This document shows positions 4,541 to 17,810 of a stretch of DNA of 64,000 nt, in pieces. This DNA is from an uncultured Candidatus Poseidoniales archaeon (GTDB lineage Archaea > Thermoplasmatota > Poseidoniia > Poseidoniales > Poseidoniaceae). Position numbers and translations under genes: made by a program. Within the stretch, counting starts at the first letter, position 1, and each line of letters opens with the position of its first letter. Below the pieces are notes generated by a model that did no database searches, was not told where the DNA came from, and saw only the letters and a list, made by a program, of their open reading frames with translations. The DNA lies in the NCBI GenBank assembly GCA_902563095.1, contig CACEWA010000001.1, positions 24,540-88,539 on the forward strand, read 5' to 3'.

Positions 4541-6064
4541 TCAACGTAGGCCGTCAACACGTGCTAAGATTTCATGCGGCCTTACGTAGTACTCGGTAAT
4601 AATTTGGCTAACTTGGTCAGACTTACGGATATCATTCAATACCATCCATTCAAGAATACGCTTACGGGTTCGTAATTCTCTACGCATCTCGTCTTGACTA
4701 TAGTTAATTTTGACCATGATTTTCTCAAGAACATATGACTTTCCAGAGAATATGAAATCATCATTTGCTACATTCCATCTAAACACTTCATTGGTGATAA
4801 CTTCCAGAGAGTTAGGGTCGATACCTACGATTTCAACAATCTGTTTTGTTCTTCTTACACGTCGTCCATTAATACGAGTCTGAATTTGAATCGCACATGC
4901 TTCCAAAGCAGGTAACAAAACACGCGGAATATCGATCGGCTTGTTCTCCAACCTATGTACTAACGAAGGTACAGAGTCAGCGTGCACCGTTGAATATGCA
5001 CAGTGTCCTGTTGCCATCGCTTGGAACAGAACATATGCTTCAGCACCACGAATTTCACCCACGATGATGTATTCTGGTCGCTCACGGAGAGCAGCCTTTA
5101 GCAACTCGAATTCCCCGATTTCACCTTCATTAGATTCACCACCGAATCCTTGTCTTGTCAGACCAGGGACCCAGTTTGGCTGTGGAATGTTAACTTCACG
5201 AGTGGATTCGATACTTACAATCTTCATCTGCCATGGAATGAAAATACACATAGCGTTCAATGTAGTTGTCTTTCCTGAAGCAGTACCGCCTACGAATAGC
5301 ATCGGCACTTCATTCTGGAAAGCGACCCACAGATATGCACCCATCAGCGAGGAGAGTGTACGGAAAGCGATAATGTCACACGGTGAGAACGGGTCGTCCT
5401 TGAATCTGCGAATACAGAATGCTGAACCACGAGTGGATACTTCACGACCTAATTTCATAACGATTCTTGAACCATCCATCAGCGTAGCATCCAGCAACGG
5501 GTCAGCAACAGAAATGTGCTTACCACAACGCTGTGCCAACTTGATAACATATGATTCTAATTCGTCATCTGTCTCCCAAACACAGGTGGTTTCTACAGAC
5601 TCGAATTTCCTGTGATAAGCGAAAATTGGAACATTTGTTCCGTCCAAAGAAACGTCTTCCACATTCGCATCATTCATCAGAACATCCATCTTTCCATATC
5701 CTACCAAATCTCTTCGGAGATAGTAGAATAGTTTTGACTTGGATTTCTTGTTAATTTTCATCCCATAGGCCTTGATGACCTTGTCCATCGCTGTCCGAAG
5801 GTATGCTGTAGGATCAGCATCGATTTCTTCGATATTTGCGGTTAGTGAGCGGATGAAGATATCGAGAAGCTCATCACGCCACTCTTGCTCTTTCTTATTC
5901 AAAGGAGGTTCAATGATTTGATAAATGATATTTAGGGTTCTCTTGTCACGCACAATTCTTGCAAATGCATGTGGAGGCATGACAGGATACTTGTCAAGTT
6001 CATCATACATTGCACGCTGTTGGTTACGACTTCTTCTTTGGCCACCACCGCTTTTCCTAGCCAT
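4541..6064 (-). CDS. Type IV pilus assembly ATPase (PilB/FlaI/VirB11 family)
   Basis: GGTASGKTT Walker A, ALRERPEYIIVGEIRG, AMATGH..STVHA. Confidence 0.95.
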   Translation of the reverse strand: MARKSGGGQRRSRNQQRAMYDELDKYPVMPPHAFARIVRDKRTLNIIYQIIEPPLNKKEQEWRDELLDIFIRSLTANIEEIDADPTAYLRTAMDKVIKAYGMKINKKSKSKLFYYLRRDLVGYGKMDVLMNDANVEDVSLDGTNVPIFAYHRKFESVETTCVWETDDELESYVIKLAQRCGKHISVADPLLDATLMDGSRIVMKLGREVSTRGSAFCIRRFKDDPFSPCDIIAFRTLSSLMGAYLWVAFQNEVPMLFVGGTASGKTTTLNAMCIFIPWQMKIVSIESTREVNIPQPNWVPGLTRQGFGGESNEGEIGEFELLKAALRERPEYIIVGEIRGAEAYVLFQAMATGHCAYSTVHADSVPSLVHRLENKPIDIPRVLLPALEACAIQIQTRINGRRVRRTKQIVEIVGIDPNSLEVITNEVFRWNVANDDFIFSGKSYVLEKIMVKINYSQDEMRRELRTRKRILEWMVLNDIRKSDQVSQIITEYYVRPHEILARVDGLR

Positions 6065-6119
6065 ACATACACCCCTGACACTTTGGACACGGTCTCACTC
6101 GGTTATGACCTTTCTCCAT

Positions 6120-6147
6120 TGTGAGAGGCCCTACGGGCCCTCTCACA
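6120..6147. repeat. GC-rich intergenic inverted repeat with central CCC-TAC-GGG
   Basis: tgtgagaggccc tac gggccctctcaca; overlaps the stop codon of the upstream kinase and lies ~55 nt upstream of the pilus ATPase. Confidence 0.75.
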
Positions 6148-13306: not shown

Positions 13307-13984
13307 ATGCAGGCATGGACAGGCGGTGAAAGATTGCACCTCGGAGCGGAAGCAGAGGTGATTTCTGGCTCATGGCATGGAAGGTCTGCAATTCTGAAAA
13401 AGCGAAGGCCTCGAGGGTGGAGACATCCAGATCTGGATGCGAGTCTAACCAGAAAACGAATGACGAATGAAATCAAATTGACGATTTGGCTGGCCAGCCG
13501 AGGAGCTCCAGTTCCAGCAATATGGGATGTTGATATGGAGGAAGCCAGTATAATCATGGAGAGAATCGAAGGAAGGCCGCTTATCGAAGTACTCCATTCG
13601 AATGAACACGATGAAGAATTGCTTATCTCAGTAGGAAAAGCGATTCGTGAATTACATCGTAACGCAGTAAATCATGGAGATTTATCTACTAACAATATCC
13701 TAATCAACAGTAATAGAGATGCAGTTCTAATCGATTTAGGATTAGCAACTCGTGAATATGACTTGGAAGGTTTTGGAATCGACTTACATGTTCTTCATGA
13801 AATCCTGAGAGCAAGTCATCCAAGTGTCAAAGGTGCAATGGATTTGGTCCTCAAGGGATACCTCGCTTTAGATGAGGAACTTGGCAACCCTGAAGCAGCC
13901 CCTGGAGGAATGCCTCCAAAAGCGATTGAAGTAGTCAAAAGACTAGAGCAAATTATGAAACGTGTTCGATACCATGGTGGTTAG
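13307..13984 (+). CDS. bud32: KEOPS complex kinase Bud32
   Basis: GAEA, KKRRPRGWRHPDLD, HGDLSTNN, IDLGLA, IDLHVL, KRVRYH. Confidence 0.92.
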   Translation: MQAWTGGERLHLGAEAEVISGSWHGRSAILKKRRPRGWRHPDLDASLTRKRMTNEIKLTIWLASRGAPVPAIWDVDMEEASIIMERIEGRPLIEVLHSNEHDEELLISVGKAIRELHRNAVNHGDLSTNNILINSNRDAVLIDLGLATREYDLEGFGIDLHVLHEILRASHPSVKGAMDLVLKGYLALDEELGNPEAAPGGMPPKAIEVVKRLEQIMKRVRYHGG

Positions 13985-16037
13985 AAGTATTCGCTTCTCT
14001 TTGCTTTTGTACAATATAGATGAACGCTAGTGAAATAACCAGTATGACTCCGAATTTCAAAACATTCGATGAATATGGTTGTAGCGTAGGTTCTTTTGCT
14101 TGGACCTCAACACTAATGTCGCCTTCACTATTCATCTGTTGATATACATAATAATCTTGTAACACCATAGGAGCCCATTGGTCTAAGTCATCTGCAGTCA
14201 AAGGTTTTGTCAAGTTAGTTGAGAATTCATGGATGTAAATTTCTCTATCAGTATATTTGCTTGAAGCATTTGAAGGGTCGATTTCTGTGTATGCAGAAAA
14301 CATCAGAACACCATAGTCTACATGCGGGTCGTAGGCTGCAAATTTATGATCTGAAATAATCTGACTTTCGCCTGTAAGTGTATCGAGTAGAACTAATCTA
14401 GAAGTTGCATTAACATCAATCGTGGCTGCTAACTTATTTCCAGAAAAAGAGATGTCAGTAATTGTGGCATTTTCTAAATCAACATTCAAACCTTGAGCGA
14501 TTAATATGTCATCTTCTCCAGAGTCCGCAGTTGCATTCACTTCTAGTGAAATCAAACCTTCGCCATCTATGATTCCAAGATGTACTGTATCTGGGTCGCT
14601 AGCGAATACTAATGCAATCTGGCCATTTGATGATTCAAGCAAAATGATTGAATCCCCTTGACTAGAAGTTGGCCCTACATTTTCCGTACCGTCAAAGGCC
14701 CAGTAAGTCACTTGCCCATCCTGTAACAAAGCAAAACAATCATCTGAAACAATCGTCACATCACTTGGTGATTGAACATCCATGGTGTGTCTTACTTCAA
14801 GTGGATTTGTCAAATCAACAACCATCAGAACAGTTTGATTTGCCATAACTAACATGTCTCCACGTACCGTGTATGTTGAATTTTCATCCATTTCCGGCTG
14901 TAAAACTTCTATCTCGGAATTTAAGTTAGATAAATCATGAACCACCAATAAAGTCGCTTCTTCTTTCTCGTCCAGAGTGATTAGCCAACCATCGGCAGCT
15001 TCCACACCTACAGGTGCATCAACTCCTCCGGCCGGTATTGATTGGTGAGTCAAATCCCAAGTAATCACGCCAGCGACTACAATCATAACTACGGTCAACA
15101 TGATTCCTGTTTCCCTACTGGTTGGCTTCGTGAATCTTGAAAGTTGTTTGCCGAAATGTGATTTAACCACATCAAATGCCCTTTTCGGATTTGTCAGCAA
15201 TGTTACAAGCCGAGCGTTAATTGTTCTTTCATCAAAGATTCTCCAAAATGGATCTGCCAACTTATTGGCAATATTTACTGCTATTGTTGCGACAACCATT
15301 CCTCCGATGATATCCACGAACCAGTGTATACCAAGATATAGGATACAAAATGCAGTCATCAATACAAACACCAATAGTATCCTGCGATAATTAGTCCAGC
15401 GTCCATCTGTATCAAATCTCAATAAACAGAGCCAAACAGCAAATGGGAATGCAATATGTAAACTTGGCATTCCATTGGTCAAAGGGTCTATTCGATGAAA
15501 CCAGTCATTGATTTCTGGAGTGTGATTGTAAGCCAGTGTTTCCATTCCGGGAATATAATTTCCAGTTACATGTACATTGAAAAACAGATAAAATGGAATT
15601 GCTATTACATACACCCAAAATATCGCTAAACTAATTCTATCAGCCATATACCTGTCATCGAAATATGCGAAATAGAATATCGAAACATAGCATATTACCA
15701 TGAATCCGACAACATAGAAATGTGTCATGAAAGCAGTTAGCCAATCCGCTCTAAATGTCTCTTGAACCCACAAAACCATATCTGCTTCAATAGCATAAAT
15801 CCATGGAGTCATGTTGAGCATGCCATCGGTATTGGCCATCAAAATTCTATCTACTTCGTCCAAGAAATCTTTGGCGTTGTAAATGACTAAGACTATAGCG
15901 ATATGCAACCAATATCTGCGAATGAAATCAATGAAACCTTCCGATGTCACTTTAGCCCAAGGCGGTTTAATCATTGGCATCAACAGTACACCAATTGCCA
16001 ATGCGGAAATCAACCAAGTAAGATAAACACCATCCAT
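13953..16037 (-). CDS. PAP2/AUR1-like (IPC-synthase-like) membrane phosphotransferase fused to a beta-propeller-like domain
   Basis: NGMPSLH and LYLGIHWFVDIIGG PAP2 motifs; C-terminal half has TolB-like repeats and a final TM helix. Confidence 0.8.
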   Translation of the reverse strand: MDGVYLTWLISALAIGVLLMPMIKPPWAKVTSEGFIDFIRRYWLHIAIVLVIYNAKDFLDEVDRILMANTDGMLNMTPWIYAIEADMVLWVQETFRADWLTAFMTHFYVVGFMVICYVSIFYFAYFDDRYMADRISLAIFWVYVIAIPFYLFFNVHVTGNYIPGMETLAYNHTPEINDWFHRIDPLTNGMPSLHIAFPFAVWLCLLRFDTDGRWTNYRRILLVFVLMTAFCILYLGIHWFVDIIGGMVVATIAVNIANKLADPFWRIFDERTINARLVTLLTNPKRAFDVVKSHFGKQLSRFTKPTSRETGIMLTVVMIVVAGVITWDLTHQSIPAGGVDAPVGVEAADGWLITLDEKEEATLLVVHDLSNLNSEIEVLQPEMDENSTYTVRGDMLVMANQTVLMVVDLTNPLEVRHTMDVQSPSDVTIVSDDCFALLQDGQVTYWAFDGTENVGPTSSQGDSIILLESSNGQIALVFASDPDTVHLGIIDGEGLISLEVNATADSGEDDILIAQGLNVDLENATITDISFSGNKLAATIDVNATSRLVLLDTLTGESQIISDHKFAAYDPHVDYGVLMFSAYTEIDPSNASSKYTDREIYIHEFSTNLTKPLTADDLDQWAPMVLQDYYVYQQMNSEGDISVEVQAKEPTLQPYSSNVLKFGVILVISLAFIYIVQKQREANTSNHHGIEHVS

Positions 16038-16116
16038 TGGACTAACCTCCTAGTTTCGTCGTGTCATAAAGGCATACAAGTGTATTACTACGACAAATAC
16101 ACTCGGAAAGAGCGTT

Positions 16117-16464
16117 TCACCATACTCCGTGGACATACGCTTTGCCATTATCTGGATCTTGTTTTTCTCCCAATCTCCAGATTCTCTCAAATCTATAAAT
16201 TCCTGATGAGCAACCACTTGTCCACTCAAATGCTAGGGCATAATTCCCGACTGGTCTAACAGTTGGCTTTTCTTTAGGGAGTGCTTCTACGGTTCTTCTC
16301 AATATTTTTGATGAATCATCGTTGTTCCTTTGGGGAGAGCAGTTCGCACAAGGACATGCGTGTCTCAAATCATCATAGGTAATTACATGCTCTGTACCAT
16401 CTGACCAAATAAGATGCATGTCGACATCTCTACGCTCTAAACGCTTCAATTCAGGAATATCCAT
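16117..16464 (-). CDS. DUF971 / GBBH-N-like small protein
   Basis: LIWSDG.EH...Y..LRHACPCANC...PVGNYAL...SGIY; GAGGTG RBS before the ATG at 16464. Confidence 0.88.
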   Translation of the reverse strand: MDIPELKRLERRDVDMHLIWSDGTEHVITYDDLRHACPCANCSPQRNNDDSSKILRRTVEALPKEKPTVRPVGNYALAFEWTSGCSSGIYRFERIWRLGEKQDPDNGKAYVHGVW

Positions 16465-16474
16465 GAAGATCACC

Positions 16475-17482
16475 TCAAATGATTTCTAATCCACTACCGG
16501 TTGAACCGGATTCGACCTTGGATTGGATTTGAGCTACTACCTCTGCGAATGCTTGAGATGCAGGACCATCGGGTTCAGACACGATTCTGTGAACTCCGTC
16601 ATCTCCACCTCTTACGAAGCCTGGGTCGAATGGAAGTTTACCGAGGAATGGTACACCGAATTCTTCAGCAGTTTTCTCACCGCCTCCCGATTTGAATATA
16701 TCCAAAGTTCCGGACCAGTGGCCTTCTTCATCCGCAGTAACTTGAACTGTCTTTCCACCAGGTGCAGCTAATTCTATTTCAGTTCCAGAAGGAGCCTTTC
16801 CTCGAATCGTGTAACCACTCATATTTTCGATTACTCCGATTACATCAACCTTCAGTGAATTTGCAAAGGTAATAGATTTACGAGAATCAAGAAGTGCAAC
16901 ATCTTGCGGAGTTGTGACGATAACCATCCCGTCAATATCTGGGAGGTTTTGTGCCACAGTCAGCGGTTCGTCAGATGTGCCGGGAGGGAAGTCGATAATC
17001 AGATAATCCAATTCTCCCCAATCGACATCGCCAATAAATTGCTGGATTGCTCCAAGTTTGATTGGTCCGCGCCACACGACTGGAGTATCCTCGTCTTCCA
17101 AGAGAAATGCCATCGATATGACCTTGACACCCAAATGGCCCTGTGCAGGATGAATTCTTCCGCTTTCTACATTCAAGCGTCTACCGCTTAGACCCATCAT
17201 CTTCGGAACGTTTGGACCAGTGATGTCAATGTCTAGCAAACCTACTTTCAAGCCTTGTTGCGCTAGCGATAGTGCCAATCCTGTAGCGACAGTAGATTTG
17301 CCTACTCCACCTTTACCAGAAAGGACCATTATTTTGTGTTTAATCGCCTTACCCATCTCTGAAATCGCCATCTTGCGCTTCATCTGATTGTAAGCAGCCT
17401 CCATTTTCTTCTGCTCTTCAGGAGAAGGTCCAGCAGGTGCGTCTCCGGGTTGGTTTACCTTGACAGGGGAATCAGCCATCAT
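16475..17482 (-). CDS. mrp: Mrp/ApbC/NBP35 family P-loop ATPase, atypical (no cysteine)
   Basis: SGKGGVGKS, DIDITGPN, VVWRGP, DWGELDYLIIDFPPGTSD, VTTPQ, GVIENMS. Confidence 0.92.
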   Translation of the reverse strand: MMADSPVKVNQPGDAPAGPSPEEQKKMEAAYNQMKRKMAISEMGKAIKHKIMVLSGKGGVGKSTVATGLALSLAQQGLKVGLLDIDITGPNVPKMMGLSGRRLNVESGRIHPAQGHLGVKVISMAFLLEDEDTPVVWRGPIKLGAIQQFIGDVDWGELDYLIIDFPPGTSDEPLTVAQNLPDIDGMVIVTTPQDVALLDSRKSITFANSLKVDVIGVIENMSGYTIRGKAPSGTEIELAAPGGKTVQVTADEEGHWSGTLDIFKSGGGEKTAEEFGVPFLGKLPFDPGFVRGGDDGVHRIVSEPDGPASQAFAEVVAQIQSKVESGSTGSGLEII

Positions 17483-17810
17483 GTGCATGCGCGGGCCTGT
17501 TATACTTCAACCCTTTTTCAGTACCATATTGCAATAGAATTGCTCCAAAAACCCATAACAAAATGTTCCATTCCATCTGCATACCGGCATATGCCCATCC
17601 TAAACCAACACTCAATGCTATCACTGGAAGCCTAGCATGGCGAACATCGCCATCGAGCAAATGTAGAACTAATCCCGCGAACATTGTTTGAATCGTGATA
17701 ATTGTTGCAATGACCCTGAAAAGCATGTCAAAATCGTTTGCTGCGGCAATGATGTGAGCGATGAACAATGTCAGAAATATGGCGGCATAAACCAAAATTG
17801 GCTTCCACAT
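17472..17810 (-). CDS. Small hypothetical membrane protein (~4 TM)
   Basis: Hydrophobic ORF whose stop overlaps the mrp start. Confidence 0.65.
   Translation of the reverse strand: MWKPILVYAAIFLTLFIAHIIAAANDFDMLFRVIATIITIQTMFAGLVLHLLDGDVRHARLPVIALSVGLGWAYAGMQMEWNILLWVFGAILLQYGTEKGLKYNRPAHAHDG

Follow-up and report, generated by a model that had tools for sequence, protein, structure and literature searches.

The 64,000-nucleotide (nt) window analyzed here, a stretch of contig CACEWA010000001.1 from an uncultured Candidatus Poseidoniales archaeon, carries on its minus strand a gene for a P-loop ATPase of the Mrp/NBP35/ApbC family (16475–17488), set between a gene for a DUF971 protein and a small hydrophobic open reading frame (ORF) of the same strand. 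The translated ATPase is free of Cys and has a predicted beta module at the place where other members of the family carry the CxxC hairpin of their iron–sulfur (Fe-S) cluster. It appears to be the marine group II (MGII; order Poseidoniales) ortholog of Mrp/NBP35/ApbC, in a Cys-free subfamily that bears this module. The gene was delimited as the longest minus-strand ORF at this place (337 amino acids), but translation probably begins at M4 (17479; 334 amino acids), judged by close homologues, which open with MADSPV.

Membership of the family is evident over the whole ATPase core. The match to PF10609 (NUBPL/Mrp iron-transfer P-loop NTPase) scores 301.1 bits (cut-off 27.1) and comes in two pieces, residues 49–228 and then from ~261, with the break at profile position ~179. 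In an alignment of the window protein with canonical Mrp proteins (A1), the columns of the deviant Walker A motif SGKGGVGKST (residues 57–66; 17291–17320, minus strand), including the signature residues Lys59 and Lys64, are invariant or nearly so, as are D166, P168, G170, and D173 of the Walker B/switch II block DYLIIDFPPGTSDE (residues 161–174; 16967–17008, minus strand). The same holds for switch I (LDIDITGPN), for the Walker B stretch DFPPGTSDE, and for the WRGP block of the family. The ENMS motif, which normally stands just before the CxxC hairpin, lies at 16817–16828 (minus strand); its E221, N222, and M223 are invariant in A1, and the column entropy of the motif across MGII is 0–0.07 bits. 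An AlphaFold2 model made with A1 as input has a mean predicted local distance difference test score (pLDDT) of 87 and a predicted template modeling score of 0.84. Its top Foldseek matches are ApbC (8zkc, E 5e-23) and Cfd1 (6g2g, E 8e-23), both with probability 1.0, followed by AF2382 (2ph1), 3kb1, and ATPase-type HypB structures, including HypAB complexes. With the Mrp/ApbC/NBP35/Cfd1/Ind1 proteins, the window protein thus shares the fold, ~35–55% identity, the deviant Walker A motif with its signature Lys, the WRGP, ENMS, and FKxGGG blocks, and the status of a single-copy housekeeping gene; to canonical carriers, its core is ~50% identical, family-specific WRGP and ENMS blocks included. It differs in scoring below the cut-offs of the NCBIfam equivalogs for ApbC (NF008669; 204.2 bits, cut-off 348) and MrpORP (NF041136; 322.6 bits, cut-off 450), in having neither a CxxC pair nor any other Cys, and in the module of ~37 residues and four strands at the hairpin site. 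By its motifs and predicted fold, the ORF is a bona fide, intact, and strongly constrained Mrp-family ATPase.

Few Fe-S biogenesis factors are as conserved as the Mrp/NBP35 proteins, in whose accepted mechanism the CxxC pair bridges a labile [4Fe-4S] cluster. An earlier note on this DNA had claimed that the translated Mrp contains no Cys at all, that an insert of ~37 codons at 16703–16813 replaces the CxxC site, that this insert looks Ig-like, and that the protein cannot hold a cluster in the canonical way. The first, second, and fourth of these claims are borne out by inspection: the translation has zero Cys, and residues 226–262, which make up the insert, map exactly to 16703–16813 (minus strand). 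Having no Cys, the window Mrp can offer a cluster neither the canonical site nor a thiolate from elsewhere in its own chain. After GVIENMS, the protein reads GYTIRGKAPSGTEIELAAPGGKTVQVTADEEGHWSGTLDIFKSGGG, whereas canonical members have x-x-C-P-x-C-G-x(4)-IFG. The insert opens a gap in A1 and amounts to ~27 net extra residues over canonical Mrp; the homologues in the PDB (Cfd1 6g2g, AF2382 2ph1, ApbC 8zkc, and 3kb1) flank but do not cover it, the alignments of Cfd1 and AF2382 spanning residues 48–227 and resuming at ~261.

The Ig-like character claimed for the insert was upheld with qualifications. AlphaFold2 predicts four beta strands (residues 226–231, 237–241, 247–251, and 257–262) at pLDDT 90–97. 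When inserts of MGII proteins were searched in isolation, the bacterial Ig domain Big_6 (PF17936) matched 19 of 20 (best E 7.9e-7) and CarboxypepD_reg (PF13620) 11 of 20; the longer inserts of relatives align to CarboxypepD_reg model positions 1–43 of 82 (E 5e-4 to 0.035). Precomputed Big_6 matches are present on many homologues, and the window Mrp itself has a weak match to the Ca_tandemer repeat at residues 206–263. The pattern xGx..G..V.V...G....TDxxGxF...L is common to the insert, Big_6, and CarboxypepD_reg. Against the likeness stand the lack of any Big_6 match to the window's own isolated insert and the nature of the matches found in relatives, all of which fall under the curated gathering cut-offs and cover only part of the domain. 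The insert also differs in having ~half of a domain, in four strands, and in sitting inside a cytoplasmic ATPase, whereas the two Pfam domains belong to secreted or surface proteins. As modeled, it resembles about half of an Ig-like/CarboxypepD_reg beta sandwich.

Conservation within the insert points away from metal binding. Among the closest homologues (defined below), mean column entropy is 1.19 bits in the insert versus 0.27 bits in the ATPase core, and the insert evolves ~4x faster than the core. The only conserved positions are G225, T227, G230, A232, G235, P243, G245, T247, D253, G256, F/W258, T261, and L262. As these are Gly, Pro, Thr, turn Asp, and aromatic positions, they suggest a structural or docking module and not a metal site; a metal site in the insert was considered and is unlikely, no His, Cys, or acidic set being conserved.

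The sequence itself was checked for error, for which the earlier note had left room. The window belongs to a metagenome-assembled genome (MAG) that is 63% complete, and, apart from this, only the oddity of a Cys-free Mrp would speak for an assembly or sequencing error or for a decaying pseudogene. Near-identical sequence to the stretch was found in 20 marine metagenome runs, and 16100–17500 is covered by contigs of four runs from four studies with 2–6 single-nucleotide polymorphisms (SNPs) and no indels. Four SNPs fall inside the Mrp gene across these independent assemblies, all of them synonymous. Only two RNA runs were returned, and sampled words of the stretch were in neither, which has no bearing on expression. 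Homologues were taken as the 120 closest 90%-identity clusters (76–96% identical), several with the source name Poseidoniaceae or Poseidoniales: 114 of the 120 have no Cys, and all 119 whose ENMS landmark could be placed bear the insert. Frame, motifs, and insert are kept in hundreds of clusters at 76–96% identity, and the low entropy of the core bespeaks strong purifying selection. Sequence or assembly error is ruled out by the matching assemblies and the synonymous SNPs, and the chance of an artefact of any of these kinds is negligible.

The distribution of the variant was surveyed with PF10609 in 151 genomes of the class (~100 of MGII) and more widely in 201 Thermoplasmatota genomes. In MGIIa and MGIIb, the two families of Poseidoniales, the match is split and of the insert type in every genome that has one; none of these genomes has a continuous canonical match, and their other matches are weak and ParA/MinD-like. 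The earlier note had raised the question of a second, CxxC-containing Mrp: there is none in the window's own MAG, where the other matches score 23–24 bits and are ParA/MinD-like, and none in the ~100 MGII genomes. In the sister order, MGIII, the PF10609 match is continuous and lies within a protein of ~460 amino acids, a DUF59-Mrp-DUF971 fusion with the architecture of HCF101, and most genera have CPECG. Four MGIII loci were inspected (L005–L008; genomes G003, G031, G001, and G017). Three of the four proteins are full HCF101-like DUF59-Mrp-DUF971 fusions; that of L006 has an N-terminus without recognizable DUF59 sequence, and the genus of L008 has lost the CxxC (a short Cys-less loop, GFTPPGSEEIFHIFG) and kept CPCAHC in its DUF971 domain.

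The earlier note had proposed aligning Mrp homologues across Thermoplasmata. Outside Poseidoniales, Mrp is canonical across the Thermoplasmatota genomes except in one family, f29 (source name 'Candidatus Thermoplasmatota archaeon'). Its sole Mrp has the same insert type at ~50% identity; in two of the three genomes sampled, the proteins that were called cleanly have 0–1 Cys. In Marinimicrobia/Fidelibacterota, reached via representatives at 43–44% identity, a large group of proteins joins DUF59 to an Mrp that has its insert at this very site; 117 of 119 have no Cys. In a predicted structure of one of these homologues, the insert is beta-rich and less well defined (pLDDT 75–88). Twelve of 77 Mrp-bearing Marinimicrobia genomes, many of the 12 small, have the insert-type protein, each as its one Mrp, and the rest have the canonical type. 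The two types are mutually exclusive within the sampled genomes, and three separate pelagic lineages (MGII, f29, and a Marinimicrobia clade) have no Mrp other than the Cys-free, insert-type protein. That it never occurs alongside a canonical copy suggests that it fills the Mrp niche. The earlier note had also asked whether such proteins are an already known subfamily; in the literature searched, we found neither an account of an Mrp that is Cys-free or bears an insert nor any of Mrp in MGII or Marinimicrobia. In a closed MGIIa genome (G006; locus L011, 2268–3173, plus strand), the Mrp ORF ends at 301 amino acids (...GGDLEFTEL), ~35 residues short, which is likely a frameshift or sequencing error in that assembly.

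Whether the insert arose once was addressed by a quick maximum likelihood tree with the insert columns removed. The proteins of MGII (support 99) and f29 (100) are neighbours (85) among archaeal-type Mrp proteins, and those of Marinimicrobia (100) share a bacterial DUF59-type clade (97) with the MGIII fusions. A constraint that joins all 22 insert-bearing proteins in one clade lowers the log-likelihood by only 3.5 units (approximately unbiased test, p 0.47). Compared without flanks, the MGII and Marinimicrobia inserts align with an hhalign probability of 95% (E 4.6e-8) and, on this profile comparison, are homologous at the profile level. The free tree suggests, without establishing it, that archaea and Marinimicrobia gained the insert independently, and a single origin followed by lateral spread is possible. 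Simple fission of an MGIII-type, HCF101-like fusion is unsupported as a source of the MGII gene; on the tree, the MGII core groups apart from the MGIII fusions.

Downstream of Mrp, the DUF971/GBBH-like_N protein is encoded at 16117–16473 (minus strand; PF06155, E 2e-16, 60.9 bits, cut-off 22.8). Its likely start is the ATG at 16464 (115 amino acids), 10 nt past the Mrp stop, and it is preceded by a Shine–Dalgarno-like GAGGTGAT box that overlaps the Mrp stop codon. The best relative in the PDB is 3luu. The motif CPCANC (C40, C42, and C45; 16339–16356, minus strand) aligns to CPCAEC of 3luu, and a fourth Cys, C88, in the block WTSGCSSGIY (16210–16212, minus strand) aligns to the His of SDGHNTGIF in that structure; GCSSG is kept in the DUF971 proteins of both MGIIa and MGIIb. 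MGII DUF971 thus has a Cys4 site where 3luu and MGIII ('DGH') have Cys3His, and the same order has lost all Cys from Mrp (window; L011, L025–L029). A conserved CxCxxC motif like CPCANC has been discussed for HCF101 (PMC7980591). Nearly every genome of the class has one copy of DUF971. In each MGIIa genome sampled, it directly follows Mrp; in MGIII, it is fused to Mrp, and in MGIIb, it lies ~130 kb from Mrp in a different conserved neighbourhood. No DUF971 was found in the three f29 genomes (92–94% complete) or in one of the two Marinimicrobia genomes tested. Being unlinked in MGIIb and absent from f29, DUF971, with which the earlier note had proposed to model the dimer, cannot be the general or obligatory partner of Mrp in the subfamily; as a partner in MGIIa it is plausible.

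These observations bear on one alternative, that the window Mrp has remained a carrier: its cluster ([4Fe-4S] or [2Fe-2S]), seated at the Mrp dimer or between Mrp and DUF971, would take its thiolates in trans from the Cys4 site of DUF971, the two proteins forming a split HCF101. The 10-nt spacing of the genes throughout the sampled MGIIa genomes, the fourth Cys that joins CPCxxC where relatives have His, the fusion of the modules in MGIII, and the DUF971 Cys motif that persists in the one MGIII genus without CxxC are all in keeping with it, and HCF101 offers a case of cluster binding without the canonical site (PMC2805927). It has to be set against f29, in which the same Cys-free, insert-type Mrp occurs in genomes lacking DUF971, against the distant DUF971 gene of MGIIb, and against the tree, on which the MGII core is not sister to the MGIII fusion. 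The homologous site in γ-butyrobetaine hydroxylase (GBBH) is a structural Zn site, which also speaks against it. The function of DUF971, moreover, is left undefined in the literature (PMC7980591, PMC11838916). On balance, we consider a trans-ligated cluster unlikely.

The remaining genes around Mrp were examined in the same genomes. Upstream, a hydrophobic ORF of 112 amino acids (17472–17810, minus strand) has a stop codon that overlaps the Mrp start (ATGGCTGA) and no Pfam match. A homologue with 37% identity (E 5e-10) lies directly upstream of Mrp in the MGIIa genus of L011, and none is present at the MGIIb locus L009. From this arrangement, the ORF may be the first gene of the Mrp operon and encode a co-translated small membrane partner. 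On the far side of DUF971, positions 13953–16037 (minus strand) encode a membrane protein of 694 residues, whose N-terminal part is a PAP2 domain and whose long C-terminal part is non-membrane; its gene is found downstream of Mrp, in synteny, in MGIIa as well as in MGIIb (L009, 257–2350). Divergent from the Mrp operon, a low-molecular-weight phosphatase/ArsC-like gene (PF01451; 17768–18223, plus strand) is kept in MGIIb as well (L009, 3590–3952); its annotated ORF start is probably too far upstream, MRLLFVCVGN being the likely real start.

The earlier note had concluded that the protein is either repurposed or reliant on a partner, and this remains the right pair of options. Repurposing outside Fe-S biology would make it a positioning ATPase like MinD, ParA, or FlhG or a regulator like SalA; Bacillus SalA, likewise without CxxC, is reportedly such a regulator and would serve as a precedent. 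The total absence of Cys is what this reading predicts, the added module has a protein–protein interaction fold with a variable surface, and A-type carriers are on hand for cluster trafficking. A further point is the C-terminal pentapeptide GLEII (16478–16492, minus strand), which follows a variable linker at an end of the model with low pLDDT; the conserved xLEI[IV] tail resembles a docking peptide and is possibly a short docking motif. A variable linker rich in Ser and Gly precedes this tail, which is kept in 119 of the 120 closest MGIIa-type clusters and is found neither in Marinimicrobia proteins nor in P0121 or P0126, the latter a relative of the f29 proteins. A change of pathway is harder to square with a protein that is the sole Mrp of its genomes and ~50% identical to canonical carriers over the whole core, WRGP and ENMS included. 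Separate, weaker ParA/MinD-like genes occur in the same genomes, and the associations of the variant, with DUF971 and ferredoxin as neighbours and with DUF59 by fusion in Marinimicrobia, are all Fe-S linked. We regard repurposing outside Fe-S biology as doubtful, with somewhat more in its favour than unlikely would convey.

The ferredoxin association comes from two diverged Marinimicrobia loci, at which a gene for a 2x[4Fe-4S] ferredoxin (~100 amino acids) lies 72 nt upstream of the Cys-free DUF59-Mrp gene on the same strand. The loci belong to the set L019–L023 (ferredoxin at 4627–4929, DUF59-Mrp at 5001–6128), and the two Mrp proteins are ~62% identical. Judged by gene order and domain fusion, the Fe-S context of the variant and its relatives is retained: DUF971 in MGIIa, the DUF59-Mrp-DUF971 fusion in MGIII, and the DUF59 fusion and ferredoxin in Marinimicrobia. 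In MGII, cluster carriage can fall to other proteins, as the genomes also have genes for A-type carriers and for DUF59 as a stand-alone protein.

Fe-S-linked neighbours, mutual exclusion with canonical Mrp, and the availability of other carriers lead us to favour a reading to which we give about even chances: with Cys-bearing partners at its side, the protein would still take part in the maturation of Fe-S proteins, as an adaptor driven by ATP and free of metal. The protein would no longer carry a cluster itself but would still dimerize and cycle with ATP. In the solved Cfd1 and AF_226 dimers, the CxxC hairpin of each subunit meets its counterpart on the two-fold axis, where the pair bridges the [4Fe-4S] cluster; the two beta modules would therefore lie side by side on that axis, at the former place of the cluster. 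Placed in this way, they may act as a protein latch or docking platform, and the ATPase would serve as an adaptor or chaperone that joins Cys-bearing partners of Fe-S biology with their clients. Among these partners, the candidate in MGIIa is DUF971 and in Marinimicrobia the 2x[4Fe-4S] ferredoxin; stand-alone DUF59 proteins and A-type carriers may also qualify.

Two known systems offer comparisons. The arrangement proposed would be analogous to ATPase-type HypB of Thermococcus (3vx3, 5aun), a CxxC-less ATPase of the Mrp/MinD family that works with a small Cys-rich metallochaperone, HypA, and is among the best fold matches; it differs in serving Ni insertion into hydrogenase, in its identity of only ~31%, and in lacking the beta insert. 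HCF101 (DUF59-Mrp-DUF971; plastids, alveolates, and Planctomycetes–Verrucomicrobia–Chlamydiae (PVC) bacteria) has three modules that are all present in MGII and shares the CxCxxC of DUF971. In plastids, HCF101 has a part in delivering [4Fe-4S] clusters although its C-terminus lacks the canonical site (PMC2805927), so that loss of this site need not end Fe-S function. HCF101 has no beta insert and keeps other Cys residues that bind its cluster, whereas the window Mrp has no Cys at all. Its one-polypeptide architecture is found in the MGIII relatives and not in the window protein, which is the ATPase domain only. In MGII, the modules are separate genes, with DUF971 adjacent in MGIIa only and DUF59 elsewhere in the genome, and the ATPase core groups apart from the HCF101-like MGIII fusions on the tree.

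Several points weigh against the adaptor reading. Complete loss of Cys is also to be expected from a switch to a function outside Fe-S biology. Adjacency to ferredoxin or DUF971 is circumstantial, and the DUF971 link in particular is weakened by its remote position in MGIIb and by the f29 and Marinimicrobia genomes without the gene. The place of the inserts in the dimer is extrapolated from that of the CxxC motifs in solved Mrp dimers, and the adaptor function is predicted from sequence and a structural model.

A more specific form of the adaptor reading can be put forward. The half-sandwich inserts could pair across the two-fold axis as one inter-subunit beta sandwich, giving an ATP-gated latch instead of the [4Fe-4S] cluster; a universal carrier would thereby have turned into a metal-free adaptor, maybe iron-sparing or oxygen-proof, that spread laterally among MGII, SAR406/Marinimicrobia, and a further Thermoplasmatota lineage, as the dominant heterotrophs of the pelagic ocean. 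Taken as a whole, this proposal is improbable as it stands.

What the variant means for the family depends on which option holds. For an entire order of archaea that are very abundant in the ocean, and for a pelagic Marinimicrobia clade, the only Mrp is a Cys-free protein with a folded module at the cluster site. If this protein is still engaged in Fe-S maturation, the core function of the ATPase needs no cluster carriage, which bears on the debated question of what the ATPase does in ApbC, Nbp35, and Ind1. The variant would then separate Mrp ATPase function from cluster carriage in nature, and it would offer both a natural 'ligand-free' form for dissecting the role of the ATPase and a handle on the function of DUF971. 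If it works outside Fe-S biology instead, MGII and the SAR406 clade would be without any Mrp-type carrier, which would matter for models of iron use in the ocean.

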